Part shown: positions 16,485-42,731 of the stretch, in pieces
Layout of the letters: every line of letters begins with the position of its first letter
Numbering within the stretch: position 1 is the first letter of the stretch
DNA from: a virus
Taxonomy: Duplodnaviria > Heunggongvirae > Uroviricota > Caudoviricetes
Strand: one strand, 5' to 3'
Length of the DNA: 64,000 nucleotides
Virus record (IMG/VR): IMGVR_UViG_3300033069_001366
Coordinates: 47,108-111,107 of that record
Position numbers and translations under genes: made by a program
Notes under the pieces: model-generated
The model's input: the letters and a program-made list of their open reading frames with translations, nothing else
Databases searched by the model: none
What the model was told of the DNA's origin: nothing

Positions 16485-16496
16485 AATTTTGCAAAT

Positions 16497-16925
16497 TTAT
16501 TTATGTGATATTAGATAATACAATGCGTTTTCTATATTTGATTGATTATCTTTAAATGAACCTAAACCTTTATTACACAAAGAACAGAGTAAGCCTCGTA
16601 CTTTTCCTGTTTTATGATCATGATCTACACATAAACTCTTATTTAGTTCTGATTCTGGAGTACCACAAATAGCACATTTTCCTACTTGTTCAAAGTATAT
16701 TTTGTCATATTCTTTCTTTGTAAGATTATACTTACTTATGACAAATTTTTCTCTATAGTACTCTTTAGGATAAATTTTCCTACTTTTAGGGTAGGACTTT
16801 TGCTTTTGACATAAACATTCTTTACAGGAACCTGTAAAATATCCATCTGATTTAGGATAAAATTCAGATATTGTTTTCTGAATTTTACATATTTTACAAA
16901 CTTTTTCCTTTATATTATGTTTCAT
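16497..16925 (-). CDS. HNH, endonuclease-VII type homing endonuclease (142 aa).
   Basis: Motif CAICG...LCVDHDHKTGKVRGLLCSLCNKGLG, which is the canonical DHDH-TG-RGLLC-CN-LG endo VII/HNH_3 signature. An N-terminal Cys pair suggests a zinc finger. Confidence 0.75.
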   Translation of the reverse strand: MKHNIKEKVCKICKIQKTISEFYPKSDGYFTGSCKECLCQKQKSYPKSRKIYPKEYYREKFVISKYNLTKKEYDKIYFEQVGKCAICGTPESELNKSLCVDHDHKTGKVRGLLCSLCNKGLGSFKDNQSNIENALYYLISHK

Positions 16926-16970
16926 AAACTACAAAGATATTGATTAATTGTATGATTTCCAATTAATCTT

Positions 16971-18641
16971 TTATGTTAATTTAGATTTTAAAAGTGACAG
17001 AATTGCAACTTGTACCTTTGGATCATATGATTTATAATTTCCAATCATCTCATTTAAAAGCTTTGAGAATTGATCATCATCAACATCTCTAAAATCTTTC
17101 TTATTTCTTAAGAATTGACCTGTTTTATAATCAAATCTCCAAGCTGGATTCTTTTGAGTAGCCATCATATATGCTAAAGATTGATTAGTCTCTACATCTC
17201 TCATTCTATTATTCATAAACTGATCCCACATGTAGTTCTTCATGTTATCATAGTTCTGTTGACCAGTTATAGACTCTCTATAGTAATTCTGATCATTCTG
17301 CATATCTGTAAGGGTTTTCTGAGTTTTTAATTGAGTATTAAATTGTCTAGAACTATTTATAATCTGTGAGTTTTGATTATCATATTGGTTTCTTATAGTT
17401 GGAGCTTTATCCAGTAAAGATGCCCATATATCATTTGCCTGTGCATTACCAAGTATAGGATTTAATGCAGATGTAGCTCCAACTTGTTGATTAGCAAGAC
17501 CTTTCATGTCTGCTATAGTTTGCTCTGGATTAAGTAAAGAAGGGTCCATGTAAGTAGTATTAAATCTACTTCTCATAGGCATATACCTTTTTACAGAGGC
17601 TGCTTTTAGTGCATTATAAGCTTGACTTTCCTTTTGATAAGGAGTAAACTCCCACGGAATTTTCATAAATGAATCTGGTTTTTCATCTATTTTACCAACT
17701 CCTATATCTGGAGTAGCATATCCAATTTCCCCAGGAGTTATTTTTATTTCTAACTGTTTATTATATGGATTACCTGAAGTTTTTTCAGGAACACCAGAAA
17801 CTTTTGTATTAGTACTAGTTTGTGGAGGAGTAGTTGCTACGGGAGGAGTTGTTGTCTGTGTAGTTACTGACTGAGTACCTGTAGGAATATATCTTGGCAT
17901 ACCTCTAAATCCAGCTAATGGATTTAATCTATATCCTTCTGGGATCACTTCTTTCTTTTGGTCAAAAAATGTAGATAATCTTCCCCAACCACCTGCCACT
18001 TGAAACTTAGGAAGAATTCTTCCACCGTACTTCATATATTGTTTACTTTCCATAATATCTTCTTTTATATCTTTGTCAAATACAGGTGCAGTATTTGTAG
18101 AAAATGCAGGAGTACCATCTGGAAATCCTTTTTTGGATTCTTGTATGTATCCTATTTGTCCTAGTTTTTCAACATACTTTTCTAACATCATAGATGAACT
18201 TCTTTTAGCTAAATCATCCTTTTTAGGATCTAAAAGGTTCTGAACCAATGCATTATAATGCTTAGTATCAATATTTCTTTTAAGTACCTCTGCAGGAGTA
18301 TTCTTTTTGCCTGTTTTTAGTTCAAACATTTCTTGTTCATCATTAGATATATTCATTGACTTATGATCAGAAAATACAAAAGATCCTCCTTTAAGGTATA
18401 CATCTGTACCACCTTGAGAGTGCTTTTTACCCTTTGCTTTGAATAATGCAGATAAATCAGGATTGAGTATTATCTCTCCTTCCTCTACTTCTACATTAGC
18501 TGCATAAGGATTCTCATCAATAGAATCATTGATTTTTGGATTATCATTATGTAATGATGGTAATTTACTAGGATCGTTCTGATAGTACTTTCCTGTAAAA
18601 TGGTACATATTTTTGTACGATTTGTTATCTCCTACTCCCAT
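16971..18641 (-). CDS. Virion-associated protein (556 aa) with a Thr/Pro-rich linker.
   Basis: ORF containing a TQSVTTQTTTPPVATTPPQTSTNT low-complexity linker. It overlaps the next gene by 10 nt. Confidence 0.55.
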   Translation of the reverse strand: MGVGDNKSYKNMYHFTGKYYQNDPSKLPSLHNDNPKINDSIDENPYAANVEVEEGEIILNPDLSALFKAKGKKHSQGGTDVYLKGGSFVFSDHKSMNISNDEQEMFELKTGKKNTPAEVLKRNIDTKHYNALVQNLLDPKKDDLAKRSSSMMLEKYVEKLGQIGYIQESKKGFPDGTPAFSTNTAPVFDKDIKEDIMESKQYMKYGGRILPKFQVAGGWGRLSTFFDQKKEVIPEGYRLNPLAGFRGMPRYIPTGTQSVTTQTTTPPVATTPPQTSTNTKVSGVPEKTSGNPYNKQLEIKITPGEIGYATPDIGVGKIDEKPDSFMKIPWEFTPYQKESQAYNALKAASVKRYMPMRSRFNTTYMDPSLLNPEQTIADMKGLANQQVGATSALNPILGNAQANDIWASLLDKAPTIRNQYDNQNSQIINSSRQFNTQLKTQKTLTDMQNDQNYYRESITGQQNYDNMKNYMWDQFMNNRMRDVETNQSLAYMMATQKNPAWRFDYKTGQFLRNKKDFRDVDDDQFSKLLNEMIGNYKSYDPKVQVAILSLLKSKLT

Positions 18642-24496: not shown

Positions 24497-24497
24497 A

Positions 24498-33789: not shown

Positions 33790-33791
33790 TT

Positions 33792-34283: not shown

Positions 34284-34349
34284 CCTAAATATTAAAATTT
34301 CCTAGTATAATATAGTGATTTTTAGTGTATAATCAAAATTAATTTGATA

Positions 34350-34378
34350 TATTAAAAATCCCTCACTTCAGAGGGATC
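34350..34378 (-). terminator. Rho-independent terminator-like hairpin after the exonuclease gene.
   Basis: atccctc-acttca-gagggat hairpin. On the minus strand it is followed by TTTTTAAT. Confidence 0.45.
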
Positions 34379-35208
34379 TTATATTTAAACTTTTTAATAG
34401 GTGAGTAACTTTGTAATTCATTATAAACTAGTTCTAAAAGATTTACATCCTGTTTACAATAATCTATCATTTTTTTCATAGATACTTTACAATTCTTTAG
34501 TACAATATTTTTCCATAAATCTGGTTCAGTTTTAATTTTTTCACCAAGACCTAGGAATTGTCCCATATAATCAAGTTTATTTGAATTAAATTTAAAACCT
34601 GCTCTTGCCATTTTTAAAGTATCTATAGAGTTAAACTTTGGAGAGAGTTCAATTCTATGATATAAACATCTAGTTCTCAACCATTTAATATCAAAAGAAT
34701 CTCCATTTTGAGTAACTGTTTCATCTGCAGAATCTATGATTTTAGCAAATTTTACTAACATTTCATAATCATCTCCATCTTTCCATTGTAAAGATTCTAC
34801 TTTATCAGAATCTGACCATTTCCAACAAATACATATGACCGCCCTTTCTTGTATAATATTTTCATGTGAAAGTTTTATATCTGAACCAATTCTCCAAGAA
34901 GTTACAATATTTGGACTAACCTCTATGTCAAAGAATAGTTTTCTTTTAGGTCTTTCTCTTTCTTTATGTATTAAATTGTAGGTTTCTAATAAGGCAAGAT
35001 CTGATGTAGAATGAATAATTTTATCAGCTTCTCTAAGCTCAGATTGAACACTTTTTACAAGTTCTAGTTCTTTTTGTGCTTCTTTTATAGTTTTAGCAGT
35101 AGTTTTTGGAAGACTTTTCCAAATTGCCTCTAATGTAACATGTGGAGATTTTTTAAGATACCCCTTACGAACCAAAATAAATTTTTCTATTTCCTTTTTA
35201 CTTATCAT
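34363..35208 (-). CDS. DEDDy-type 3'-5' exonuclease (DnaQ/RNase D-like).
   Basis: Exo I LFFDIEVS, Exo II TQNGDSFDIKWL and Exo III YCKQDVNLL motifs are present in the canonical order. Confidence 0.65.
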   Translation of the reverse strand: MISKKEIEKFILVRKGYLKKSPHVTLEAIWKSLPKTTAKTIKEAQKELELVKSVQSELREADKIIHSTSDLALLETYNLIHKERERPKRKLFFDIEVSPNIVTSWRIGSDIKLSHENIIQERAVICICWKWSDSDKVESLQWKDGDDYEMLVKFAKIIDSADETVTQNGDSFDIKWLRTRCLYHRIELSPKFNSIDTLKMARAGFKFNSNKLDYMGQFLGLGEKIKTEPDLWKNIVLKNCKVSMKKMIDYCKQDVNLLELVYNELQSYSPIKKFKYKIPLK

Positions 35209-35830
35209 ATAATTTTTTTATTATTTTCCAATCAAATCCTTTATAAGACTTTCTCTTGCCCTGTATATAATTTCTAGCAGCAGAAGGATAATAACCATTC
35301 TTCTTGGCTTCTTCAAAACTCCAGGTATTTAAAATTTTACCAGTACTTTTACATATTTGTTGAATAAGTTTTTTATTTTTTTCAGATCTTTTAGAGATCA
35401 TAGATTGAGGCTGTTTTTTATTTTTCCAATAGCAATTTCTTTTTAATGAATATGATATTTTCTCTTTATGATCTTCAGAAAATTTTTTACCTTTATTTGA
35501 AATATTTGGAACTGGTAATTCTAATGGAATAGCCATATTATAACCTTTATCTTTTAAATGCGAAGAGTATAATTTAATAAAGAAATTTTCTAATATTACT
35601 GTATGTTCTTCTTTACATATTGCCAATATTTCAAATGTAAAGAAATTCTCGCCATATTTATTAAATGACAACTGAAGATGTGTATTGAAATGAATATTAT
35701 TTTTTAATTTTAAAAAATGGGACCTTTTTCTACTATATAATGTTTTTGTAGTACTACCGATATATACCTTATTATTTTTTAAGTTTGTAATTTTATAAAC
35801 TCCACATCTTTTTAAATCTGAATCTATCAT
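35198..35830 (-). CDS. GIY-YIG homing endonuclease (210 aa).
   Basis: N-terminal GVYKITNLKNNKVYIGSTTKTLYSRKRSHF is the GIY-(10-11)-YIG...R...H signature. The C-terminus is basic, as expected for a DNA-binding region. Confidence 0.7.
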   Translation of the reverse strand: MIDSDLKRCGVYKITNLKNNKVYIGSTTKTLYSRKRSHFLKLKNNIHFNTHLQLSFNKYGENFFTFEILAICKEEHTVILENFFIKLYSSHLKDKGYNMAIPLELPVPNISNKGKKFSEDHKEKISYSLKRNCYWKNKKQPQSMISKRSEKNKKLIQQICKSTGKILNTWSFEEAKKNGYYPSAARNYIQGKRKSYKGFDWKIIKKLYDK

Positions 35831-35929
35831 AATACAAAATTATGAAAAAGTATTCATATAAAAAAATAATTTTTTACATTAATTATTGAAGTAAACAATA
35901 TTTAATCATTAGATGATAAAAAGAAAAAG

Positions 35930-36002
35930 TGGGATAGGGAGTACTCGAAACTCACGAGCCTACGTTTTACAGACGTTGCTAAGTGCCCTGCTTTCTATCC
36001 CA
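35930..36002 (-). tRNA. tRNA, probable Tyr(GUA), class-I-like with imperfect stems.
   Basis: Acceptor GGGATAG/CTATCCC. Anticodon arm ACGT-CTGTAAA-ACGT. T-loop TTCGAGT. Confidence 0.45.
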
Positions 36003-36011
36003 TTGATTATG

Positions 36012-36096
36012 AGGAGAGTACAAGATTCGAACTCTTGCGACTTTTACATCTTCTGTTTAGCAAACAGAACAGTTTACCAATTCCTGCAACTCTCCA
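36012..36096 (-). tRNA. tRNA-Ser(GCU), class II.
   Basis: Acceptor GGAGAGT/ACTCTCC. Anticodon arm TCTGT-TTGCTAA-ACAGA. Long variable arm. T-loop GTTCGAA. Confidence 0.65.
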
Positions 36097-36100
36097 TTTG

Positions 36101-36187
36101 AGGCAAGGGTGGGATTCGAACCCACGGGACTTTTACATCACACAGGCTTTCAAAGCGAGGCTCTTATGACCACTTGAGCACCTTACC
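36101..36187 (-). tRNA. Class-II tRNA, probably Ser(UGA).
   Basis: Acceptor GGTAAGG/CCTTGCC. T-arm GTGGG-TTCGAAT-CCCAC. Anticodon loop TTTGAAA, but the anticodon stem has two mismatches. Confidence 0.5.
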
Positions 36188-36191
36188 ATTG

Positions 36192-36265
36192 TAGTCTAGG
36201 TGAGATTCGAACTCACAAACATAAAATTTTAAGTTTTATAGCTTTCCCAGTTAGCTTACTAGACC
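36192..36265 (-). tRNA. tRNA with anticodon UAA (Leu-type) but class-I architecture.
   Basis: Acceptor GGTCTAG/CTAGACT with discriminator A. D-arm AGCT-AACTGGGAA-AGCT. Anticodon arm TAAAA-CTTAAAA-TTTTA. Variable loop of 5 nt. T-arm GTGAG-TTCGAAT-CTCAC. Confidence 0.6.
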
Positions 36266-36270
36266 ATTTG

Positions 36271-36356
36271 TAGGGATGGAGAGATTCAAACTCTCACGCC
36301 AGTTTATTAACACTAGATCCTAAGTCTAGGGTGTCTATCAATTCCACCACATCCCC
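36271..36356 (-). tRNA. tRNA-Leu(UAG), class II.
   Basis: Acceptor GGGGATG/CATCCCT. Anticodon arm CTAGA-CTTAGGA-TCTAG. Long variable arm. T-loop TTTGAAT. Confidence 0.65.
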
Positions 36357-36361
36357 AAAAA

Positions 36362-36390
36362 GAAAAACCCCACCAAAATTGGCAGGGTTT
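36362..36390 (-). terminator. Terminator-like hairpin with a U-tract on the minus strand.
   Basis: In minus sense: CCCTGCC-AATTTTGG-TGGGG followed by TTTTTCT. Confidence 0.35.
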
Positions 36391-36489
36391 TATTGTAAAC
36401 AATATAATTATTTTTAAACAATATAATCCCTGCTCTTACTTTGTAAGAGATACGATAAGGAACTATATAGTTTGTTATTTTTCATGATG

Positions 36490-36521
36490 CAAATATAGTA
36501 TAATAATTTACAAAAACCAAA
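36490..36521 (-). promoter_or_regulatory. Candidate Bacteroidetes-type promoter upstream of tRNA cluster 1 (-33 TTTG and -7 TAnnTTTG).
   Basis: Minus sense reads TTTG, then 20 nt, then TATATTTG, directly downstream of the tailspike stop codon. Confidence 0.25.
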
Positions 36522-36527
36522 TTTATT

Positions 36528-38327
36528 TTAAACATCTATTAAAAATCCCTGATTATTATAACTTATAGTCTGAGAGTATTTTATATTTCCATAACTATCT
36601 ACTACTTTAATTCTAAAAGTATTAATGGTTAAACTTAATTTGATATCCCTACAGTTAGATGCTGTAGTACTATAACCACCAGGAATAGTGTAAATAGTTG
36701 TAAATACATTATTTGTCATTCTTTCAATATATTTTACTACAGGTACATTTGTATTTATATTCCAACAAATATTTGAAACTCTTCTTCTTGGTAATGTTCC
36801 TGATAAAGAAATAGTTCCTTGAATAGGTTCATTTATAGTTGTAGTCGTAGTTGTACTAGAACTTGTAGTTGTAGTTGTTGAACTAGTGGTAGTTGTACTA
36901 CTTGTTGATGTTGTTGATGTACTTGAAGTAGTAGTTGTTGTAGTAGGAACTAAAGTTGTAGTTGTAGTTGTACTTGTACTTGAAGTAGAAGTTGTACTTG
37001 TACTACTTGTACTTGAAGTAGAACTTGTAGTAGTTGTTGTACCAGCAACATATTCTAAAATACCTATTTCAGGAGGATTACTAACAGCAACACCTGCAAA
37101 ATCTACAGAGTACCCCACATTTGTTCCTGCATTTATTAATACACTGCCAACTAAAGGAGAGAAGTTCCAATCTTTTGCATTTCCTGAAGTTGAGGTCCAA
37201 AAGTTAGCACTTGTTACAATCTCACTAGGGTTTGCTGTAATATTTAATAATGAACCTGTTCCTGATGTATTTAATTTGTATACATTATTTTCATGAATAA
37301 GAGTAGTATTATTCCACTGTGCTCTATAGACATCTACAGTACCATATAATTGAAATATATTATTCTTTACAGTTAAAGTAGCTGCTGTAGTAGGAGTGCT
37401 CTTATATCCTATCATTGCATTACTTGATACTCTAAATGGTTGAGTTTCGACAATAACATTATTAAGTATACTTGTATTAATTACATTTGTAGCAAAAGTG
37501 CCTGAATTACTCACATACATAAAAGACCCATTATTTGTACATTTATTGTATGCTAATACAGTTCCGGTTACAGTACGTCCACCTGAACCACCAATTTCAA
37601 TAACACCATTGCAATCATTAAAACTATTGTATGCTATAAGGTTATTACTACAATCTACATCAGCGTAAATATCTACTGCTCCACCATCATATTCATAATC
37701 ATATGAATCTGCCCAACACCCTTCAAATATATTATTTGTAATAATATTATTAGAAGAAGATATAATTACACCATTAGCACCATAGTCATCATCATTTCCG
37801 GGAGGCGGACCATCTTTGGTGTTTTTAATCATCCTCATATTCTGTACTGTAGAATATGTAAAAGTTGTATTATCACCAGTAGTATACAACGCACAACCAG
37901 TTCTATCAAAATTACATCTTGTAATAGTAATATTAGTAGATGAATCTGGAACAATAGCTCTTTGAATTTTTGCCTGTATTGTTCTATCTACTGCAGATAT
38001 AGACTCATCTACTATAGTCCAGTCTTGCAGTGTAATATATGATCTATTATACATAGATATAAGAACATTAATAGATGCACCTGTACCTAATAATTTAGGT
38101 TGTGCCCCTGTTCCATATGCACCAAAAATAATTCTTGCTGATGAATTACCAGATCTTGTTATATTTAGAGTTCCTGAATAACTCTGTCCTCTTTTTAATA
38201 AGACTTGGTCTCCAGGTTGAAGTAAACTCATATTTGAATTTACATTTGATAGAGACTTCCAAGGTGTATTTATACCACCATTAGATGTTGAACCAGTGTA
38301 ACTGGAATCTACGTAATATATTGCCAT
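36528..38327 (-). CDS. Tailspike or receptor-binding protein (599 aa) with a right-handed beta-helix (pectate-lyase-like), a Ser/Thr linker and a C-terminal domain.
   Basis: Repeated NNxIxNN and CxNNG turns (NNIITNNIFEGC, SNNLIAYNSFNDCNG, YNKCTNNGSF). A 70-aa S/T-only linker is followed by a roughly 100-aa C-terminal domain. Confidence 0.65.
   Translation of the reverse strand: MAIYYVDSSYTGSTSNGGINTPWKSLSNVNSNMSLLQPGDQVLLKRGQSYSGTLNITRSGNSSARIIFGAYGTGAQPKLLGTGASINVLISMYNRSYITLQDWTIVDESISAVDRTIQAKIQRAIVPDSSTNITITRCNFDRTGCALYTTGDNTTFTYSTVQNMRMIKNTKDGPPPGNDDDYGANGVIISSSNNIITNNIFEGCWADSYDYEYDGGAVDIYADVDCSNNLIAYNSFNDCNGVIEIGGSGGRTVTGTVLAYNKCTNNGSFMYVSNSGTFATNVINTSILNNVIVETQPFRVSSNAMIGYKSTPTTAATLTVKNNIFQLYGTVDVYRAQWNNTTLIHENNVYKLNTSGTGSLLNITANPSEIVTSANFWTSTSGNAKDWNFSPLVGSVLINAGTNVGYSVDFAGVAVSNPPEIGILEYVAGTTTTTSSTSSTSSTSTTSTSSTSTTTTTTLVPTTTTTTSSTSTTSTSSTTTTSSTTTTTSSSTTTTTTINEPIQGTISLSGTLPRRRVSNICWNINTNVPVVKYIERMTNNVFTTIYTIPGGYSTTASNCRDIKLSLTINTFRIKVVDSYGNIKYSQTISYNNQGFLIDV
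36838..37040 (-). repeat. Low-complexity tandem codon repeats encoding the Ser/Thr linker of the tailspike.
   Basis: Plus-strand gtagttgta/acttgtagt-type units are repeated many times. Confidence 0.7.
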
Positions 38328-38892
38328 TTTTATACTTTTATTATAATATACTAAATATTTCTGATATTACCAAACACACCTCCGTTTATCCCTGCAAGTA
38401 GGGTTTCTATCTTCAAGCATTTAGATAGACTCATCTAACCTAAAACTCCCGTGTCCCTGTGCCTCATCTTTTCACCATGTAGGCTGTTGATTATGAGGAC
38501 TTTATATTTTCACGGAGGAATGTATTTTAGCCTACTTGGTTTTTTCTTGCAGGTACAAGTTGTCACGGATAGACATTGCTTGATATTTATACATCCTATC
38601 GTATGAATTAGTTACTTTCATACTAGTTTTAATAGATAACTTTTATTGTGCTAAAGGATAAAAGTTGGAAAAAACCTTTTGGCAAAAATAAGGGATATTA
38701 GTCAAAATAAAAAATCCTTCTATTTCTAGAAGGACTTTCTATTCCGTGACAATGATGCCTATAAAAACCAAGGCAAAAATACAACTTTTCTTTTTTCTTC
38801 CAAAATTTATTTTGTGGAGATGAAGATAATCGAAATCTTCTCAAATAGTTTGCAAAACTACTTCGCCAGCCTTGGAACATGCACCCCCTTAG

Positions 38893-38965
38893 TTGACTTG
38901 GTGAGTAACGATCTCACTACCTTTACATTATCAGTGTAACGCTCTACCATTTGAGCTACAAGTCA
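38893..38965 (-). tRNA. tRNA-Ile(GAU).
   Basis: Acceptor TGACTTG/CAAGTCA. D-arm GCTC-AAATGGTA-GAGC. Anticodon arm TTACA-CTGATAA-TGTAA. T-arm GTGAG-ATCGTTA-CTCAC. Confidence 0.65.
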
Positions 38966-39501
38966 TTATTAATTATTTGAAAATGTATCTCTGCATGACA
39001 ATTTTTACACACTAAAATACATTTATCTAATTCAGACTTTAAGTTTTGAAAACTTTTAGTTCCACCACTTATAGTATAATCTTTTTTATTAGGATCAATA
39101 TGATGAAATTCTAAAGCAGCAAGACATTTATTATATCCACATTTACAACATTTCCCTCCTTTATATTCTACACATTGTTCTTTTACTTTTAACCTATAGC
39201 CTTTTTTTCTTTTGTCAGCTTTTTGTTTAATTTGAAGTTTTGTAAGTTTTCTTGCTTTTAATTTTTTACCTAATAATTGTCTTGATACTTTAAATTTATC
39301 AGCAACACCTTTAAAAGATAATCCTTGATCATAAGCATCCTGATATATTTTTAATAATTCAGGTGTATATTTATCAACTTTGTTAATAAATTTTGAACAA
39401 TGATAACTTACTGTTGATTTAGAGCATCTTAACTGTTTAGATATTTCAGCAGAACTAAATCCTTTATGAAAAAGTTCCAAAATTTTTGTCTTTTTAACCA
39501 T
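38956..39501 (-). CDS. HTH-HNH homing endonuclease (181 aa).
   Basis: N-terminal HTH-like segment (SSAEISKQLRCSKSTVSYH). C-terminal EFHHIDPNKKD...LVCKNCHAEIH HNH motif with Cys pairs. Confidence 0.65.
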   Translation of the reverse strand: MVKKTKILELFHKGFSSAEISKQLRCSKSTVSYHCSKFINKVDKYTPELLKIYQDAYDQGLSFKGVADKFKVSRQLLGKKLKARKLTKLQIKQKADKRKKGYRLKVKEQCVEYKGGKCCKCGYNKCLAALEFHHIDPNKKDYTISGGTKSFQNLKSELDKCILVCKNCHAEIHFQIINNDL

Positions 39502-39561
39502 TATTGTATACTTTATATATACAATATAAGATAAAAGTTCGAATTTATCAAATTTATTTTG

Positions 39562-39638
39562 TACTGATGATTAGATTCGAACTAATGTGTAACCAACTAC
39601 CTTTTCAACTGGATATAAGCCAGAGAGGATACATCAGC
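39562..39638 (-). tRNA. tRNA-like element, non-canonical and a possible pseudo-tRNA; identity unresolved.
   Basis: Acceptor GCTGATG/CATCAGT and a good T-arm ATTAG-TTCGAAT-CTAAT. The body has only one clean stem-loop (CTGG-CTTATAT-CCAG) and no standard D-arm. Confidence 0.3.
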
Positions 39639-39641
39639 ATG

Positions 39642-39716
39642 TCGCCTATCACGGATTCGAACCGAGGATCTTTCCTTAGACAGAGGAACAGGGACGACCA
39701 ACTCCCCTAATAGGCG
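39642..39716 (-). tRNA. tRNA-Asp(GUC).
   Basis: Anticodon arm TTCCT-CTGTCTA-AGGAA. D-arm GGGG/CCCT. T-loop TTCGAAT with one U-U pair in the T-stem. Confidence 0.6.
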
Positions 39717-39720
39717 TTAG

Positions 39721-39794
39721 TACCATGTATGGGATTCGAACCCATGAATAACACCGTGAAAGAGTGTTGACCTAGACCGCTAGTCAAACATGGC
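39721..39794 (-). tRNA. tRNA-Glu(UUC).
   Basis: Acceptor GCCATGT/ACATGGT. Anticodon arm ACACT-CTTTCAC-GGTGT. T-arm ATGGG-TTCGAAT-CCCAT. Confidence 0.65.
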
Positions 39795-39797
39795 ATG

Positions 39798-39871
39798 TGC
39801 AGTAGACAAGACTCGAACTTGCAAACCTCCGACTTGGAAGGACGGCATTCTACCAATTGAACTACTACTGC
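39798..39871 (-). tRNA. tRNA-Gly(UCC).
   Basis: Acceptor GCAGTAG/CTACTGC. Anticodon loop CTTCCAA, with one U-U in the stem. T-arm GCAAG-TTCGAGT-CTTGT. Confidence 0.55.
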
Positions 39872-39994
39872 AGGTTTAGGTTTTTGTACGCCCGATAGAA
39901 CCTATTAACTATGTGTACTTTACGATTACACTCTTCATTTGAGCTTGAATCAGAGGCTTAAGAGGGACTACGACACTGTGTACATCAGTAACAC

Positions 39995-40459
39995 TTATTT
40001 ATATACAGAAGGGTGTCTTATGACGTGATCTGCAGCCTTACATGCTATCATTTCTCCAGTTTTAAAAGTTGAGTTTGCATAACCTTTAAACGCAGAAACT
40101 AATTTAGAACTTATAGTTTTCTTTGCATCTGCAAAATCAAATTCCAAAGCTTTAACAGCAATAGGGATATCTTGAGTCAAAGTATCATGTATTTCAAGAG
40201 TTCTTAATCCTTCTCCATATAATCTTGTAAATTGACTAAAATCTTTTATTCTTGATACAACTTCTTTTAAGTAAATAAAATGAGCACCTCTTCTTCCATA
40301 TCTATAAGCTATACAAGTTACATAAACGGTATCTTGTCCCCAGTCTTGACTATCTGTTCCGATAGATATTTCTAGATGATTGAATTTTTCAATCTGATCT
40401 AGCGTATGTTCGATGATATTTACTATTTTACCATCTTGTGTCCGAAAATATTTTTCCAT
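39995..40459 (-). CDS. Hypothetical protein (154 aa) embedded in the tRNA array.
   Basis: ORF with no motif I can assign; a segment LEISIGTDSQDWG is noted. Confidence 0.45.
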   Translation of the reverse strand: MEKYFRTQDGKIVNIIEHTLDQIEKFNHLEISIGTDSQDWGQDTVYVTCIAYRYGRRGAHFIYLKEVVSRIKDFSQFTRLYGEGLRTLEIHDTLTQDIPIAVKALEFDFADAKKTISSKLVSAFKGYANSTFKTGEMIACKAADHVIRHPSVYK

Positions 40460-40483
40460 ATTGCAAAGATAGTAATTTTTCTG

Positions 40484-40555
40484 TTGCGAGGGGGAGATTC
40501 GAACTCCCGACTAAAAGGGTATGAGCCTTTTCTGCTACCGCTGCATTACCTCACA
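40484..40555 (-). tRNA. tRNA with CAU anticodon (Met or Ile2).
   Basis: Anticodon arm AAAGG-CTCATAC-CCTTT. T-arm GGGAG-TTCGAAT-CTCCC. Acceptor TGTGAGG/CCTCGCA. Confidence 0.6.
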
Positions 40556-40560
40556 TTATG

Positions 40561-40634
40561 AGGGAAGTAAGGGTGACGATCCCTTCACCTAATGATTAAC
40601 AGTCATTTGCTCTACCAACATGAGCTAACTTCCC
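40561..40634 (-). tRNA. tRNA-Asn(GUU).
   Basis: Acceptor GGGAAGT/ACTTCCC. Anticodon arm AATGA-CTGTTAA-TCATT. Atypical T-loop ATCGTCA. Confidence 0.6.
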
Positions 40635-40676
40635 ACATCTCCTTTTTTAACTCCACGGGGAAAGGTAACCCACCTG

Positions 40677-40750
40677 TATCCTTGGTAAGAATCGAACTTA
40701 CAACTTTTTGCTTAGAAGGCAAATACTCTATCCGTTGAGTTACAAGGACT
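40677..40750 (-). tRNA. tRNA-Arg(UCU).
   Basis: Anticodon arm TTTGC-CTTCTAA-GCAAA. D-arm ACTC/GAGT. T-arm GTAAG-TTCGATT-CTTAC. Confidence 0.65.
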
Positions 40751-40754
40751 TGTG

Positions 40755-40828
40755 TAGAGGATAGGAATTCCGAGATCCTGACTTCTTGTTTGTAATACAA
40801 GCACTCTGCCAACTGAGTTAATCCTCTA
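40755..40828 (-). tRNA. tRNA-Val(UAC).
   Basis: Acceptor AGAGGAT/ATCCTCT. Anticodon arm CTTGT-ATTACAA-ACAAG. T-arm imperfect. Confidence 0.55.
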
Positions 40829-40832
40829 TATG

Positions 40833-40906
40833 TCTCCCCTGAGGGACTCGAACCCACGACTCGTAAATTAAAAGTTTACTACTCTAGCCAACTGAGTTAA
40901 GAGGAG
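40833..40906 (-). tRNA. tRNA-Lys(UUU).
   Basis: Anticodon arm GTAAA-CTTTTAA-TTTAC. D-arm ACTC-AGTTGGCTA-GAGT. T-arm GTGGG-TTCGAGT-CCCTC with one U-U. Confidence 0.65.
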
Positions 40907-40938
40907 AAATAAAAAAGCCCTTCTTTTTGGGAAGGGCT
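40907..40938 (-). terminator. Hairpin with a U-tract (on the minus strand) abutting the 5' end of tRNA-Lys; a terminator or processing signal.
   Basis: agcccttc-tttttgg-gaagggct. On the minus strand it is followed by TTTTTTATTT. Confidence 0.4.
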
Positions 40939-41110
40939 TGTGTATTTTATTTTCTTAACTCTCACTTACAGAAAGACAACACAAACCCTATTGAGTTTCT
41001 ATCCTCAATATTACCTTTCACCATCGCTATGATATTTAAAGATTGCATTTGTGAATGTCTATAACTTTTAATTAGTGCAAATATACAATGTATTTTTTAA
41101 AAATCCAAAT

Positions 41111-41323
41111 TTATTTTTTTGTTCTAAAAAAATATTTTCCGTTTTCTGCTTTTTCTATTTTCTTATGAACTTTTCTTAGTATTCTAGGGACCTTTTTGCC
41201 TATATATACTCTTCTAGTCCCAAGAGTTATTTGTTCTAATGACTCTTGAAACATTATATAACCACCAACTCCAGTATAAAGTGTGATATTTCTCATACTA
41301 CAAAGATATATATTTTTGACCAC
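41111..41323 (-). CDS. Small hypothetical protein (70 aa) with a Lys-rich C-terminus.
   Basis: ORF between tRNA clusters; weak support. Confidence 0.3.
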   Translation of the reverse strand: MVKNIYLCSMRNITLYTGVGGYIMFQESLEQITLGTRRVYIGKKVPRILRKVHKKIEKAENGKYFFRTKK

Positions 41324-41389
41324 TTTATCTGATTCGAACAGATAATTTTTGATCCGTAGTCAAAGGTTATTTCCAGTTTAACTAAAAGT
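41317..41389 (-). tRNA. tRNA-Arg(ACG).
   Basis: Acceptor CCACTTT/AAAGTGG. Anticodon arm TTTGA-CTACGGA-TCAAA. T-arm ATCTG-TTCGAAT-CAGAT. Confidence 0.65.
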
Positions 41390-41396
41390 GGTTTAC

Positions 41397-41469
41397 AGGG
41401 TGATTAAAGGGACTCGAACCCTCACATAATACAGCCACAATGTACCGCTCTACCATTAAGCTATAACCA
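41397..41469 (-). tRNA. tRNA-His(GUG) with an encoded G-1 and C73.
   Basis: Anticodon arm GTACA-TTGTGGC-TGTAT. Extra 5' G pairs with discriminator C. D-arm GCTT-AATGGTA-GAGC. Confidence 0.7.
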
Positions 41470-41471
41470 CC

Positions 41472-41544
41472 AGATCCAATACTAGGGTTCGAACCTAGAA
41501 TCTACTGAATCAAAGTCAGTCGGGTTACCAATTACCCCATATTG
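41472..41544 (-). tRNA. tRNA-Gln(UUG).
   Basis: U1-A72 acceptor pair TCCAATA/TATTGGA. Anticodon arm ACTGA-CTTTGAT-TCAGT. T-arm CTAGG-TTCGAAC-CCTAG. Confidence 0.65.
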
Positions 41545-41567
41545 GAATTTTTCTTCATCCAGTATCC

Positions 41568-41638
41568 TGCACCTCGTACCCTAATCGAAAAGGTTCCAAG
41601 AGGTTTGGAAGCTCTTGTGCTACCATTACACCAACGAG
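41568..41638 (-). tRNA. tRNA-Trp(CCA).
   Basis: Acceptor ACCTCGT/ACGAGGT. Anticodon loop TTCCAAA, with a C-C at the 31-39 pair. T-arm ACCTT-TTCGATT-AGGGT. Confidence 0.55.
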
Positions 41639-41643
41639 GTATC

Positions 41644-41717
41644 TGTGGTAACTCTCAGGTTCGAACTGAGTTAGTCTGTTCTTCAAACAGATGCATTGAC
41701 CAACAATTGCTTAGTTA
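41644..41717 (-). tRNA. tRNA-Phe(GAA).
   Basis: Acceptor GGTAACT/AGTTACC with A73. Anticodon arm TCTGT-TTGAAGA-ACAGA. T-arm CTCAG-TTCGAAC-CTGAG. Confidence 0.7.
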
Positions 41718-41723
41718 CCTTTT

Positions 41724-41797
41724 AGATCCTCCTGAGTTACTCGAAAACTCTCTATTTCTGCTTACAAGGCAGACGCAGCACCATATCTGCATAGGAG
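41724..41797 (-). tRNA. tRNA-Thr(UGU).
   Basis: D-arm GCAG-ATATGGTG-CTGC. Anticodon arm TCTGC-CTTGTAA-GCAGA. T-arm GAGTT-TTCGAGT-AACTC. G1-A72 mismatch. Confidence 0.6.
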
Positions 41798-41803
41798 GCA
41801 TTT

Positions 41804-41879
41804 AGAGTCCATAGTTGGATTTGAACCAACGGTTTTACAATTTTGCAGATTGTTGCTTTTGACCTCTCAGCCATATGGA
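41804..41879 (-). tRNA. tRNA-Cys(GCA).
   Basis: Acceptor GTCCATA/TATGGAC with U73. Anticodon arm ACAAT-CTGCAAA-ATTGT. T-arm GTTGG-TTCAAAT-CCAAC. Confidence 0.65.
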
Positions 41880-41883
41880 CCTA

Positions 41884-42022
41884 TGTGGCAATGAATGGAT
41901 TCGAACCATCTATTTTATAACTTAGTCGCTTAAATTATTCAATCTTTTGTGTCAGGTAGACAGAGGACGATTCTGCATGATGTCCACATCCCAAATGTGG
42001 CGGCTTACCAATTAGCCCACTA
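41884..42022 (-). tRNA. Interrupted tRNA-Pro(UGG)-like gene. The 5' half (acceptor, D-arm, anticodon arm) and the 3' half (T-arm, acceptor) are separated by an insertion of about 70 nt; it may be a pseudogene or an intron-containing tRNA.
   Basis: 3' half: GATGG-TTCGAAT-CCATT plus CATTGCC. 5' half: GGTAGTG (which pairs with CATTGCC through two G-U wobbles), D-arm GGCT-AATTGGTA-AGCC, and a perfect anticodon arm CCACA-TTTGGGA-TGTGG. Confidence 0.3.
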
Positions 42023-42498
42023 CCTGTTTTATGCTTTATTGTATGACAATTACAACAAAGTAGTTGTAAGTTATCAAGATTATTATTTTTTCTATTTCTA
42101 TCTTTATGATGAACTTCTAAAGCTAAAGGGTTATCAAAATTACATTCCTCACATTTTAATTCCTTCATTGATTTTATCTTTATCCATCTATAACTACCTA
42201 TACCAGTTTTATATTGAGGATGATTTTCCCATTTTTTAAAAAGAGTATTGTTTTTTATAGTCGAACACTTTTTACTACAATATAAATTTCCTGTTTTAGA
42301 CCTTTTAATTCTACTAGGAGTAACTATCAAATCTTTACCACAATTTGCACATTTATAATTATATTCTTTTGCTTTTCCTATATGCTTACATTCATTTGAA
42401 CAATAAATTTTCCAATCTTTTTTGATACTAAAATTTATATATTTCTCTTCCTTTTCAAATTTAGATTTACAAACAGGACATATTAAACTTACTTTCAT
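41935..42498 (-). CDS. Zn-finger HNH homing endonuclease (187 aa) whose 3' end overlaps the 5' half of the interrupted tRNA-Pro-like gene.
   Basis: Motif EVHHKDRNRKNNNLDNLQLLCCNCH, which is the HNH signature. Multiple CxxC pairs. Confidence 0.65.
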   Translation of the reverse strand: MKVSLICPVCKSKFEKEEKYINFSIKKDWKIYCSNECKHIGKAKEYNYKCANCGKDLIVTPSRIKRSKTGNLYCSKKCSTIKNNTLFKKWENHPQYKTGIGSYRWIKIKSMKELKCEECNFDNPLALEVHHKDRNRKNNNLDNLQLLCCNCHTIKHKTGSGLIGKPPHLGCGHHAESSSVYLTQKIE

Positions 42499-42587
42499 AC
42501 TACTAATATAGTAAAAAGTTTTCGAACTTCCAAATTTATTTTTATCCCAAAGCTAGTGGGAAAAACCTGACTTCCCTACATCGCCAT

Positions 42588-42616
42588 AAAATAAAAAACC
42601 CTCATGTTATTGAGGG
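42588..42616 (-). terminator. Bidirectional rho-independent terminator-like hairpin.
   Basis: ccctca-tgttat-tgaggg, flanked by an A-run on plus (a T-run on minus) and TTTGTGTAT. Confidence 0.45.
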
Positions 42617-42731
42617 TTTGTGTATGAATCGGAAAAAATAAAAGCTTACTTTTTAATACATATACATAGACCCTCGCAGATGCCAAATGGACACTGGGTT
42701 GTGGGTTGCCATGTATGTGTAAAGTTATTTT

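Follow-up and report, generated by a model that had tools for sequence, protein, structure and literature searches.

Putative free-standing homing endonuclease genes in and around the tRNA array of a distant crAss-like phage, one of them in a cassette with a replacement tRNA-Pro

Introduction

Free-standing homing endonuclease genes (HEGs) in phages are an already known and well documented phenomenon, and some of the closest described systems lie in tRNA regions. SegB of T4 homes the tRNA region and recognises the tRNA T-psi-C motif (PMC2330249), a conserved tRNA element within its recognition site; as it homes, tRNA genes next to it are co-converted, the arrays of HEG-less relatives are shorter, and an association between HEGs and tRNAs across phages has been documented (PMC2330249; PMC13096335). 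In T6, SegB amplifies tRNA-Tyr, leading to escape from Septu (PMC13096335). The close genomes of the Zeta crAss-like phage Lera and of ct1yV3, which have about 26 tRNAs, differ mainly by HEG ORFs, taken in the passages on these phages as a sign of introns or inteins, and those passages describe no insertion sites (PMC12386605). The anticodon loops of bacterial tRNA genes can also harbour group I introns that encode HNH or GIY-YIG proteins (e.g. PMC13011429).

The locus analysed here lies in a stretch of 64,000 nucleotides (the window) from the IMG/VR virus record IMGVR_UViG_3300033069_001366, positions 47,108 to 111,107, the source of which is a distant crAss-like phage with a Bacteroidota-type host: its TerL and portal match crAss-type PHROGs, and the best GenBank matches of TerL, at 25% identity, come from crAss-like phages of Flavobacterium and Bacteroides. 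We know of no cultured isolate of this phage. As with SegB, free-standing HEGs lie within a tRNA array, but SegB is a GIY-YIG protein that sits between tRNA genes, splits none of them and has no replacement tRNA fused to its ORF, whereas the tRNA-embedded genes of the window encode HNH proteins; the window's GIY-YIG protein is I-TevI-like by its PDB match and, unlike SegB, is encoded at the flank of the array by an exonuclease gene. The activity of SegB has been demonstrated; that of the window nucleases is predicted. As in Lera and ct1yV3, the setting is a large crAss-like genome, but here the insertion sites are mapped to the base and hold no intron, and the TerL proteins of crAss-like phages in the GenBank phage collection match that of the window at only about 25% identity. 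We consider it likely that the window carries four free-standing HEGs, each with its own predicted -7-type box and each at a site that is HEG-free in relatives, and that one of them forms a self-compensating HEG-tRNA cassette. The combination of an HEG with a replacement tRNA is the unusual twist on the known phenomenon.

Results

Four nuclease genes at polymorphic sites

A sequence-only reading of this DNA had proposed four free-standing homing endonuclease genes, three HNH and one GIY-YIG. All four ORFs were found, on the minus strand and exactly where it had placed them, and the Pfam and PHROGs matches agree with the types, the PHROGs labels for all four being endonuclease VII, homing endonuclease or HNH endonuclease. 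Relatives always occupied at these positions would have spoken against mobility; instead, when the exact junctions were compared with fetched loci (L-labels below), presence/absence polymorphism of the kind that functionally defines a free-standing HEG was found at four of four sites, each being HEG-less in some relatives. The core of the proposal, homing-endonuclease-type genes that stand free, is thus supported at the level of sequence comparison. Active mobility was borne out in part: recent movement, seen as an element far more similar than its flanks, is directly evident for the Zn-finger HNH gene at 41935-42498 (HNH4) and not for the HTH-HNH gene at 38956-39501 (HNH3), the 15 contigs with an identical HNH3 all belonging to the window's own strain. 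For HNH3, the GIY-YIG gene and the Endo VII-type gene the relatives compared are 54-76% identical.

The Endo VII-type gene

The gene at 16497..16925 (minus strand) encodes a 142-aa protein of the beta-beta-alpha-Me/HNH type, according to Pfam, PHROGs and the PDB, with a CxxC...CxxC region N-terminally and the catalytic core C-terminally. It matches Pfam PF02945 Endonuclease_7 (E=7.7e-25, profile positions 6-80 of 82), phrog_2633 (6.5e-35) and, in the PDB, Hpy99I as well as T4 endonuclease VII (1.6e-8, T4 residues 7-70 only). Its membership of PF02945 is indicated by the Zn-binding CxxC pairs and the DHDH/N motif, which align with T4 endo VII (CAICG/CLICQ, VDHDH/LDHDH and LCSLCN/LCNLCN in the 1e7d alignment). 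The full-length architecture of a T4 gp49-type resolvase was not found: the C-terminal helical dimerisation domain of the T4 protein (residues about 80-157) is unmatched, our protein ends after the catalytic core, and its N-terminal extension differs from T4 endo VII.

Read against L025 and L024, in which the orthologs of the flanking 556-aa and 898-aa proteins are encoded only 46-57 nt apart, the gene is part of an insertion of about 442 bp (16503..16944, minus strand, with edges ambiguous by a few nt) that brings, besides the ORF with its stop codon, a TATCTTTG box of its own (16932-16939). The two flanking proteins, which the sequence-only reading had taken for virion proteins and for which no Pfam or PHROG family match was found, are 72% and 76% identical (aa) to those of L025 and 59% and 39% to those of L024. 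In the small size of the gene and its near full-length similarity (40-44% aa), it resembles the gp13.5-type nucleases of T7-like phages (e.g. Yersinia phage phiYeO3-12 gene 13.5), which lie between virion genes and are sporadically distributed, but which belong to another phage family and another host clade. To our knowledge, none of the gp13.5-type nucleases has been biochemically characterised as a homing enzyme.

The tRNA array, the GIY-YIG gene and HNH3

The tRNA array (35929..42026, minus strand) comprises 20 tRNAs called by ARAGORN (36011-42026, all on the minus strand), two more found by Rfam and 2 degenerate copies; there are no tandem tRNA amplifications in the window. It is interrupted by HNH3, HNH4, a 154-aa RNaseH-like gene and a 599-aa gene, and is flanked by the GIY-YIG gene, so the ARAGORN and Rfam map confirms that three tRNA-associated nuclease genes flank or interrupt it. 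The two non-nuclease genes are conserved in L067, L068, L103 and L105. Nuclease content turns over rapidly: the arrays of clade relatives carry at least seven other, different nuclease genes, three of them in L067 and others in L066, L103 and L105. L069 and L068, which share the same 332-aa neighbour, are one NUMOD3-HNH_2 gene apart, and L206, 93.6% identical to the window at the nucleotide level, has an extra HNH_2 gene 5' of tRNA-Met.

The GIY-YIG gene (35198..35830, minus strand) is free-standing and encodes an I-TevI-like protein of 210 aa, as judged from Pfam (GIY-YIG, E=3.1e-10), PHROGs and the PDB (1mk0, the I-TevI catalytic domain, 7e-12). The GVYKI, VYIGS, R, H, E and GYN elements align with 1mk0 over residues 8-100, and phrog_314 ('homing endonuclease') aligns to residues 3-206; the family assignment rests on the N-terminal domain and phrog_314 rather than on a specific C-terminal DNA-binding module. 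An exact TAATTTTG box (35835-35842) stands 4 nt upstream of the ATG, and the stop codon runs into the beginning of the exonuclease gene (34363-35208). No GIY-YIG gene was found upstream of the orthologous exonuclease in L027, L026 and L068, nor in the syntenic array of L067.

HNH3 (38956..39501, minus strand) is likewise free-standing and encodes 181 aa, with Pfam matches to several HTH families (GerE 3e-8) and HNH (1e-4) and a PHROGs match to phrog_2255 (1.5e-23). It belongs to the HNH family (PF01844) by a score above gathering and by EFHHIDPN...CKNCHAEIH behind the N-terminal HTH. On one side of the gene is a degenerate tRNA-Ile(tat)-like sequence and on the other tRNA-Ile(gat), which its last 10 nt overlap. 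L027, L067, L068, L103 and L105 have no ortholog of HNH3 at the Ile junction, and the array of L027, without HNH3 and the GIY-YIG gene, reads ...Asp, Met, Ile, Ala, Leu, Leu, (Ser, Ser), Tyr, tRNA-like stretch, exonuclease. The IMG/VR homologs of HNH3 occur in many unrelated viral contigs, every one inside a tRNA array. A non-nuclease gene (214 aa in L067, 242 aa in L068) also extends into the tRNA that follows it, at the 5' end, and such an overlap is therefore not specific to HEGs.

The HNH4 element and the split tRNA-Pro

Did HNH4 enter the array alone? Its edges, obtained by rejoining the halves of a split tRNA-Pro gene, delimit an insert of 623 bp (41922..42544, minus strand; the HNH4 element) that contains a predicted promoter (AAAATAAATTTGGAAGTTCGAAAAC...TATATTAG, 42499-42544, minus strand), the HNH ORF and a complete foreign tRNA-Pro(UGG), allele B. 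HNH4 itself (41935..42498, minus strand, 187 aa) was delimited by Pfam and by homolog alignment; it matches HNH (1e-5), HNH_3 (2.7e-5) and, weakly, zf-FCS, and it is placed in PF01844 by a score above gathering and by EVHHKDRN...CCNCHTIKH together with N-terminal CxxC fingers. Its homologs have 160-164 aa, and the last 30 or so codons of HNH4 read through tRNA-Pro(B), which is intact within the 3' end of the ORF (41951..42026, minus strand; ARAGORN, Rfam 45.5 bits). This tRNA is 79-84% identical to the tRNA-Pro of the unrelated IMG/VR contigs L070-L072 and 85% to that of Tenacibaculum phage Gundel_1, but only 59-67% to the tRNA-Pro of clade relatives.

The resident tRNA-Pro(UGG), allele A, lies on either side of the insert on the minus strand. 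Its 5' half (42545..42585, nt 1-38 through the anticodon loop CTTTGGGA) is homologous in position and sequence to the intact tRNA-Pro of L066, which follows the same small ORF and terminator directly and thus represents the empty site; its 3' half (41886..41921) consists of the 3' strand of the anticodon stem, the variable loop, the T-arm and the 3' strand of the acceptor. The 3' half was recognised by an 8-bp acceptor complementarity (TGGCGATG/CATTGCCA) and by the tRNA-Pro(tgg) cloverleaf that ARAGORN calls when the halves are joined in silico, which puts the insertion point at nt 37/38 or 38/39, the 3' edge of the anticodon loop. Directly 3' of this half, the sequences of related contigs diverge completely. 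The split tRNA-Pro is also present in L204-L209; because these contigs come from no fewer than 5 samples and 3 assemblers or sources, it is not an assembly artefact. Intact allele A was found neither in the fetched loci nor in GenBank phages nor in 185,579 bacterial and archaeal genomes, so that the proposed target of HNH4 is a reconstruction. The resident gene appears dead.

The clearest evidence of movement comes from L209. The insert is 623/623 identical there and in L206, while the flanks are 94% identical in L206 and only 74-84% in L209 (84% in the upstream small-ORF region; 74% nt, 71% aa, in a 329-aa gene). The tRNA halves of L209 match the window at 36/36 (3') and 39/41 (5') positions, and 3' of the insert the two cannot be aligned, tRNA-Thr following in L209 and tRNA-Cys in the window. 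An identical block within such divergent flanks indicates that the element, as judged from these alignments, was recently transferred horizontally. Homologs of HNH4 (57-77% aa) in L103-L106 all lie directly 5' of a tRNA-Pro(tgg), with an overlap of 10-20 nt; those of L103 and L105 are 57-63% identical to HNH4 and the conserved neighbour gene is 61% identical, a similarity in divergence that could mean that the older part of the history of HNH4 was vertical.

A comparable arrangement occurs in Gundel_1, an isolated Flavobacteriia phage with gene 110 (annotated HNH endonuclease; MT732474) within a tRNA array: this HTH-HNH ORF overlaps the 5' end of tRNA-Pro by 15 nt, and over 34 aa its N-terminal HTH shares 47% identity with the HTH of HNH3. 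Its protein is not homologous to HNH4, and no split tRNA is seen there. Gene 110 is annotation only, and we know of no functional study of it.

Promoters and the shared motif

The two tRNA-associated HNH genes had been thought to share a -7 motif as the mark of a duplicated cassette. The motif, caaatttatttt, is indeed present at 39549-39559 and 42531-42541, but it is not private to these genes: AAATAAATTTG has 6 copies on the minus strand against 0.6 expected (0/100 shuffles reach 6), and with a near copy at 38804 the total is at least 7. Because a TAnnTTTG-like box follows downstream at constant spacing, the motif is more likely a -33 (TTTG) region than a -7 box, and is probably the -33 part of the phage's general Bacteroidetes-type promoter. 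Canonical TAnnTTTG lies 19-20 nt downstream at four copies, an example being AAATAAATTTG-N20-TATATTTG at 36490..36528 (minus strand), and further copies of this predicted promoter start at 38774, 41078 and 42878. Taking as sigma-A promoters TTTG and TAnnTTTG 19-21 nt apart upstream of a gene, as predicted from sequence, we found three exact TAAATTTG-N20-TATATTTG sites (0.07 expected) and one more at 38804. At 16492, TAAATTTG in the same 11-mer stands 7 nt upstream of the 898-aa gene, in the -7 position.

The predicted promoters of HNH3 (39502..39560, minus strand; AAAATAAATTTG at 39549-39560, a TTCGAA spacer and TATATTGT 20 nt downstream) and HNH4 have a near-canonical box at the same spacing, with -7 matches of 4/6 and 5/6, respectively; the HNH4 homolog of L105 has the canonical TAGATTTG at the predicted -7 position (6/6). 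A duplicated cassette finds no support in the proteins, which align over the HNH core only (12/24 residues, E=0.005). That HNH4 travels with a promoter of its own seems correct, the predicted promoter being conserved in the homologs of L103 and L105. Both HNH promoters contain the spacer with TTCGAA, which in about 190 kb of sequence from the clade turned up in front of HNH genes and nowhere else; it may serve in regulation or recognition. Only 4/40 genes have an exact TAnnTTTG no more than 25 nt from the ATG, and the Endo VII-type and GIY-YIG genes are among the four, which argues for the autonomy of the HEGs.

Discussion

Could some of these genes be something other than mobile HEGs? It has to be considered that 16497-16925 is a true T4 gp49-type Holliday-junction resolvase that debranches DNA before packaging, because its Endonuclease_7 match is strong, its Zn cysteines and DHDH align with those of T4 endo VII, and it lies in a late/structural block. 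We find this unlikely: only residues 7-70 of the 157 aa of the T4 protein are matched, an unrelated CxxC N-terminus is present and the C-terminal half is absent, Hpy99I, a sequence-specific restriction enzyme, scores equally well, and homologs at 40-44% are scattered sporadically in T7-like phages, cyanophages and mycobacteriophages. The C-terminal half of T4 endo VII mediates dimerisation. An essential role is also difficult to reconcile with the closest relatives, L025 and L024, which dispense with the gene at a precisely conserved junction. For the 623-bp insert, the alternative is an intron, self-splicing or otherwise processed, with an HNH ORF on board and a tRNA-Pro that is still functional; the boundary in the anticodon loop (37/38 or 38/39) is the classical place of a tRNA intron, and the halves rejoin into a good cloverleaf, as with the endonuclease-bearing group I introns of bacterial tRNAs. 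This is highly improbable, since unlike those introns the insert has no ribozyme, carries a Bacteroidetes-type promoter and a complete second tRNA-Pro, and interrupts a gene that appears dead. No Intron_gpI or group II covariance-model match was obtained with Rfam at E<=1 over 7.4 kb, or even at E<=10 over the isolated 801-nt region, and the sequence outside the HNH ORF (a 5' leader of about 46 nt, the 76-nt tRNA and a 3' tail of 29 nt) is too little for a ribozyme core. By direct reading the boundaries lack a 5' splice-site U with terminal G and do not fit GUGYG...AY, ARAGORN in intron mode makes no call, and two substitutions in the 5' half of L209 leave it with a weaker anticodon stem, consistent with pseudogene drift. 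On the covariance models and splice-site nucleotides, the identity as a self-splicing intron was rejected.

Nor do we favour the view that the polymorphism reflects deletions in relatives after vertical inheritance of genes that are no longer mobile. Divergence to 54-76% identity for the Endo VII-type gene, the GIY-YIG gene and HNH3 would have left time for losses, and HNH4 has diverged from its L103 and L105 homologs about as far as the conserved neighbour has; but the 623/623 block inside 74-84% flanks cannot be vertical, the empty sites of the Endo VII-type gene show no scar and have kept their compact intergenic promoter whole, and near-identical strains differ by one HEG (L068 and L069; L206 and the window), which makes simple loss quite unlikely. 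A different question is whether the nucleases are purely selfish. They may have been domesticated, to exclude or out-compete co-infecting relatives or to reshape the tRNA array and amplify it as a counter to host defences directed at tRNAs. T6 SegB is the precedent, and SegB homologs are statistically tied to tRNAs across phages (PMC13096335); HNH3 homologs recur in the arrays of many unrelated contigs, the tRNA-Pro allele that the HNH4 cassette brings in differs strongly from the resident one, and three degenerate tRNA-like copies adjoin HEGs. Benefit and selfishness are not distinguished by sequence, the window is without tandem tRNA amplification, and a sporadic distribution with rapid turnover suits selfish elements equally. 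Domestication is doubtful as an explanation, and it is compatible with the mobile-HEG reading rather than an alternative to it.

If the four genes are mobile HEGs, then during co-infection each nuclease would cut the HEG-less allele of a related phage (intron-less homing), and recombinational repair from the HEG-bearing genome would copy the HEG and adjacent DNA. The HNH4 insert has disrupted the resident tRNA-Pro gene, and the cassette's own tRNA-Pro takes its place. We infer that the HNH4 nuclease recognises an intact resident-type tRNA-Pro gene around the anticodon arm and that the cargo allele B resists its cutting; the first insertion may have been illegitimate, with later spread using the tRNA halves and flanks as homology arms. 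On this basis we suggest, tentatively and with somewhat more doubt than conviction, that the HNH4 element is an autonomous mobile element of minimal size (623 bp) that compensates for its own insertion: intron-less and targeted to the anticodon arm, it would kill the resident gene yet spare the phage harm through the cleavage-resistant xenologous tRNA-Pro fused to the end of its ORF.

If this were so, the GTTCGAA of the HNH promoters, which is T-loop-like, could serve as an operator or for recognition, tying expression of the nucleases to tRNA-like DNA. HEG-tRNA modules would then be a force by which tRNA alleles are replaced wholesale across distant phage lineages, and could offer phage tRNA arrays a route to diversify, for example against host anticodon nucleases.

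Genome setting and identity of the nuclease genes

The window has a G+C content of about 30%, and its long ORFs are all on the minus strand. The large terminase and portal proteins match crAss-type PHROGs (phrog_6681, 7e-73, and phrog_6547, 4e-67, respectively), the terminase being only about 25% identical to its best GenBank matches, which belong to crAss-like phages of Flavobacterium and Bacteroides and to uncultured crAssphages, and two structural-block proteins have homologs on contigs of up to 160-175 kb, these searches showing about 200 members of the clade. The structural block is closed by a 4528-aa ORF (218-13804, minus strand) that comes after an 898-aa gene, has a counterpart of at least 2963 aa in the related contig L024, and probably represents the giant virion-associated protein that such phages typically have. 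Together these features indicate that the window is part of a large, distant crAss-like phage, whose host probably belongs to the Flavobacteriia or Bacteroidia. Among GenBank phages there was no close DNA relative, megablast giving tRNA-length matches only.

The four ORFs of the sequence-only reading are present exactly at the coordinates it gave and carry the domains it claimed, all on the minus strand. The Endo VII-type gene (16497-16925) encodes an Endonuclease_7 domain (E=7.7e-25) and matches T4 endo VII in the PDB (1.6e-8); the GIY-YIG gene (35198-35830) has a GIY-YIG domain (3.1e-10) and aligns with the I-TevI catalytic domain (7e-12), with the GIY, YIG, Arg, His, Glu and Asn positions lining up; HNH3 (38956-39501) matches HTH families and HNH (1e-4); and HNH4 (41935-42498) matches HNH (1e-5), HNH_3 and, weakly, a zinc finger. 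PHROGs concur on all four assignments. This is sound yet ordinary annotation, because free-standing homing endonuclease genes (HEGs) are textbook in the tRNA clusters of T4 and have been noted in large crAss-like phages. What did not survive was the proposal that HNH3 and HNH4 are a duplicated cassette: their proteins align over the HNH core only, and we rejected paralogy or cassette duplication on that ground. In each of the five IMG/VR contigs inspected, the HNH3 homolog is located within a tRNA array, and HNH3 itself, when sought in other genetic backgrounds, was found only in the window's own strain. On L074, an unrelated 149-kb IMG/VR contig, an HNH3 homolog (3862-4633) has a tRNA-Asn(gtt) on both sides, the two being very different in sequence and reminiscent of a resident and imported tRNA pair.

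Sites lacking the nucleases in relatives

The check in relatives for presence or absence of these genes gave one empty site per gene. The 556-aa upstream neighbor of the Endo VII-type gene has homologs, which we used to find relatives. In L025 (flanking proteins 72% and 76% identical) and L024 (59% and 39%) the flanking genes are 46 and 57 nt apart, respectively, with no nuclease gene between them. The empty site reads ...CATACAATTA-GTAT-TAAATTTG-N7-ATG, and the L025-type intergenic site contains ...CATACAATTAGTATTAAATTTG...; in the window about 442 bp (16503-16944), containing a TATCTTTG box, the ORF and its stop codon, lie between CATACAATTA and AAATAAATTTG. Comparison with the empty sites revealed no target-site duplication at this insertion. 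Beside the exonuclease gene (34363-35208), the GIY-YIG gene is missing in L027 (exonuclease 54% identical), L068 (61%) and L026 (64%). The tRNA array of L027 is syntenic and also has no HNH3, whose empty site would be the Met-Ile junction; its end runs ...Asp, Met, Ile, Ala, Leu, Leu, (Ser, Ser), Tyr and one tRNA-like stretch, and then directly into the exonuclease gene. The HNH4 empty site is in L066 (upstream 329-aa protein 74% identical), where a small Cys-rich ORF, a terminator and a tRNA-Pro follow each other with nothing between.

The exonuclease-gene search of IMG/VR and JGI also returned L001-L020 and L028-L065, which are mostly non-syntenic phages without tRNA arrays. L023, whose MCP is 80% identical, could not inform on the array: its sequence diverges just past the small ORF rich in Cys, and no tRNAs lie within reach. 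L209 and L024 come from sample SRR27686863 and L066 from SRR12762303. The tiny-ORF operon downstream of the 329-aa gene (42600-42860, minus strand) is kept in relatives (L023 20200-20265, L066 11130-11340, L209 2600-2900), and some of its ORFs are Cys-rich (MACGCGKPKPKPKK; MWFIFGILLGFF...; ...QCPFGICEGLCICIKK).

HNH4 lies in an insert that splits one tRNA-Pro and carries another

HNH4 appears to be an unusually clean case of a mobile element. A tRNA-Pro(UGG) begins upstream of its promoter with a 5' part that reaches through the anticodon loop (GGCGATGTAGGGAAGTCAGGTTTTTCCCACTAGCTTTGGGA, 42585-42545); this part is homologous to the L066 tRNA-Pro and directly follows the terminator found ahead of that tRNA in L066. 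The 3' part (GTTATAAAATAGATGGTTCGAATCCATTCATTGCCA, 41921-41886) lies downstream of the HNH4 stop codon and consists of the 3' strand of the anticodon stem, the variable loop, a canonical T-arm and an acceptor strand that can pair with the 5' part through 8 complementary bp. Joined, the halves make 77 nt that ARAGORN calls as tRNA-Pro(tgg) with a normal cloverleaf, and CACTAGCTTTGGGAGTTATAA is the reconstructed intact junction of this resident allele (allele A). The insert between them (42544-41922) is 623 bp long and comprises the promoter, the HNH ORF, a complete second tRNA-Pro(UGG) (42026-41951; the cargo, or allele B) and 29 further nt. The cargo tRNA-Pro lies within the last 30 codons of the ORF; HNH4 has 187 aa, and its homologs stop at 160-164 aa. 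Its identity is 59-67% to the tRNA-Pro of clade relatives, 79-84% to those of the unrelated IMG/VR contigs L070-L072 and 85% to that of Tenacibaculum phage Gundel_1, values that mark it as foreign to the clade. No bacterial source of either allele was found, an allele-B 25-mer and the reconstructed allele-A junction 21-mer both being absent from 185,579 species genomes, nor did any GenBank phage have an intact allele A.

The same split is found in six further contigs (L204-L209) from at least five samples, and since these come from different samples and assemblers and are all alike, we rejected assembly chimerism as its cause. The comparison with L209 is the most telling. Identity there is 74% nt (71% aa) in the upstream 329-aa gene, 282/336 (84%) in the upstream small-ORF region and 39/41 in the 5' half of the split tRNA, then 623/623 across the insert and 36/36 in the 3' half; directly 3' of the split tRNA there is no resemblance, L209, L204 and L205 having a tRNA-Thr whereas the window and L206 have a tRNA-Cys. 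A perfectly identical, sharp-edged block within diverged flanks argues strongly for recent horizontal transfer of the HNH4 insert. In addition, more distant HNH4 homologs (57-77% aa) in L103, L104, L105 and L106 are all immediately 5' of a tRNA-Pro(tgg) with a 10-20-nt overlap, and the HNH4 promoter with its GGAAGTTCGAAAAC spacer is common to L103 and L105, which shows a family regularly linked to tRNA-Pro and a promoter that is part of the cassette.

Promoter elements

The motif that the sequence-only reading saw upstream of both HNH3 and HNH4, AAATAAATTTG, is indeed at both places, although its interpretation as a -7 box is the less likely one. Further copies are at 16492, 36518, 41106 and 42906, with a near copy at 38804; the six exact minus-strand copies compare with 0.6 expected, and no shuffle reached six. 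An exact TAnnTTTG is found 20 nt downstream of the copies at 36518, 41106 and 42906 (three sites vs 0.07 expected), and likewise downstream of the near copy. The canonical Bacteroidetes promoter has a -33 TTTG, 19-21 nt and a -7 TAnnTTTG. At the same 20-nt spacing from AAATAAATTTG, HNH4 has a near-canonical box, TATATTAG, 4 nt ahead of its ATG, and HNH3 has TATATTGT 19 nt ahead; the HNH4 homolog of L105 has a perfect box, TAGATTTG. These observations make AAATAAATTTG a general promoter element of the phage that, judged by box spacing, is more likely the -33 part at the HNH genes than a -7 box.

The HNH3 and HNH4 promoters also have TTCGAA 5-6 nt after TTTG, which is absent from the other AAATAAATTTG copies. 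The pattern A[AT]TTTG-N2-8-TTCGAA occurs five times in about 190 kb (window and clade loci), every time directly upstream of an HNH gene: HNH3, HNH4 and the HNH4 homologs of L103, L104 and L105. The HNH4 promoter 21-mer had no match in IMG/VR. All four nuclease genes start near a -7-type box, which is exact at the Endo VII-type and GIY-YIG genes; just 4 of the 40 genes in the window have an exact one no more than 25 nt from the ATG. This gives the nuclease genes the look of autonomous transcription units. The grammar AAATAAATTTG-N19/20-TAnnTTTG, with several genes beginning just 3-7 nt past the -7 box, suggests that mRNAs of this phage clade are leaderless or nearly so. The sites concerned, all on the minus strand, are 36490-36528, 38774-38815, 41078-41116, 42878-42916, 16492-16502, 16932-16939 and 35835-35842, and the layout is also seen in the relatives L023, L025, L066 and L105. 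A clean promoter grammar is now available for an uncultured crAss-like clade.

The tRNA array and other nucleases of the clade

ARAGORN finds 20 tRNAs at 36011-42026 and Rfam adds two (40755-40827 and 39562-39638). Four tRNA-like sequences, all on the minus strand, were missed by the standard ARAGORN run: a Tyr(gta)-like one (35929-36003; 84% identical to the L027 tRNA-Tyr), an Ala(tgc)-like one (about 38816-38889), an Ile(tat)-like one of odd structure (39562-39638; Rfam 30.6 bits) and a Val-like one (40755-40827; Rfam 46 bits). The Tyr-, Ala- and Ile-like sequences have imperfect stems and each directly adjoins a nuclease gene or its promoter. The T-loops of the cargo tRNA-Pro (41951-42026, ATCGTCC) and of tRNA-Ile (38892-38965, ATCGTTA), both on the minus strand, are A54...T58 and not the usual T54...A58, as is that of the L068 tRNA-Ile. 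As a yardstick for the divergence of the cargo tRNA-Pro, the window's tRNA-Phe and tRNA-His are 100% and 84% identical to their L066 counterparts.

The arrays of the clade are rich in other nucleases. L066 has an HNH ORF reading through tRNA-Arg; L067 has a NUMOD3 nuclease 5' of tRNA-Pro, an HTH-HNH 5' of tRNA-Phe and a DUF559 protein 5' of tRNA-Gly; L068 has a different GIY-YIG gene, L103 an Endo VII-type and an HNH gene, and L105 an HTH-HNH gene. L069 and L068 have an identical neighboring protein, and a NUMOD3-HNH_2 gene is 5' of tRNA-His in L069 only. In L206 (93.6% nt identity with the window) an additional HNH_2 gene stands 5' of tRNA-Met; past this gene, identity falls to about 70% (L206 4834-5864 vs window 40460-40665), which places it at a mosaic boundary. 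The nucleases of L067 (12463-13302, 5' of tRNA-Pro) and L069 (4601-5197, 5' of tRNA-His) have a 79%-identical NUMOD3-containing N-terminal region of about 180 aa and different C-terminal domains, HNH_2 in L069 and another in L067, in what looks like domain shuffling among array-resident HEGs.

Not every gene of the array is of this kind. The 154-aa RNaseH-like and 599-aa genes have counterparts at the same positions in L067, L068, L103 and L105 (38-67% identity), so we rejected their mobility; an ORF running into the next tRNA was likewise discarded as a HEG-specific trait, a glycosyltransferase-like ORF doing the same in L067 and L068. Suppressor tRNAs with anticodon CTA (ARAGORN label "Pyl") are present in L027 (337-410) and L068 (5755-5827), and the L027 array has a PTH2 peptidyl-tRNA hydrolase, which hints that some members of the clade recode amber codons; the 64-kb window has neither. 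L071, a viral contig with a 23-tRNA array, encodes a tmRNA (7661-8084) with the tag peptide ANEYALAA.

Proposed homing and its alternatives

How did these genes come to occupy their sites? The sequence-only reading proposed homing, and the core of that proposal is upheld by the HEG-less sites and the identical cassette in diverged genomes, while its -7 reading of the promoter motif is probably wrong and the duplication did not stand. The four proteins would be site-specific nucleases that cut HEG-less alleles in co-infection and so spread themselves, repair of the cut allele from the HEG-bearing genome constituting intron-less homing, a process established for the T4 Seg and Mob enzymes. HNH4 may recognize the intact resident-type tRNA-Pro gene around its anticodon arm; the cargo allele would be spared through its different anticodon stem and variable region. 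A non-homologous event probably founded the insertion, after which the tRNA halves and flanks could have served as homology arms for further spread.

Could the 623-bp insert instead be an intron? We found no support for this. Group I and II models matched nothing, whether across 7.4 kb with a cutoff of E<=1 or across 801 nt with E<=10, and ARAGORN in intron mode did not call the split tRNA; on these negatives we rejected a group I or II intron. By direct reading, the insert boundaries show neither the U nor the terminal G that mark a group I intron, and little non-coding RNA is left for a ribozyme. In the L209 copy, two substitutions in the 5' half weaken its anticodon stem. The Endo VII-type gene is unlikely to encode a true resolvase despite the match to T4 endo VII: the C-terminal half of that enzyme is absent from the protein, the match to Hpy99I is just as good, and the closest relatives do without the gene. 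Presence and absence of the Endo VII-type, GIY-YIG and HNH3 genes could stem from losses in relatives instead of gains in the window, an explanation that is excluded for HNH4. The nucleases could also be domesticated, which is compatible with homing.

Relation to known systems and implications

All four genes are members of already known kinds. A direct precedent for the proposed mode of spread is T4 SegB, which recognizes a tRNA structural motif in DNA and takes tRNA genes along (PMC2330249), and which was recently shown to remodel tRNA loci, benefiting the phage (PMC13096335). HEG polymorphism between close crAss-like genomes is already described (PMC12386605); Endo VII-like genes wedged among virion genes are common in T7-like phages; and an HNH ORF overlapping tRNA-Pro is already annotated in the GenBank record of Gundel_1. 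In the open-access papers searched, we found no description of an intron-less promoter-HEG-tRNA cassette that splits a tRNA at the anticodon loop and replaces it.

What our analysis adds is base-level resolution, one empty site per gene and a 623-bp element identical in diverged genomes. If HNH4 does target the resident allele, it would be a simple natural system in which a selfish nuclease spares its carrier without an intron, and it would illustrate how tRNA repertoires of phages pass between lineages, a question made more relevant by tRNA-targeting antiphage defenses.
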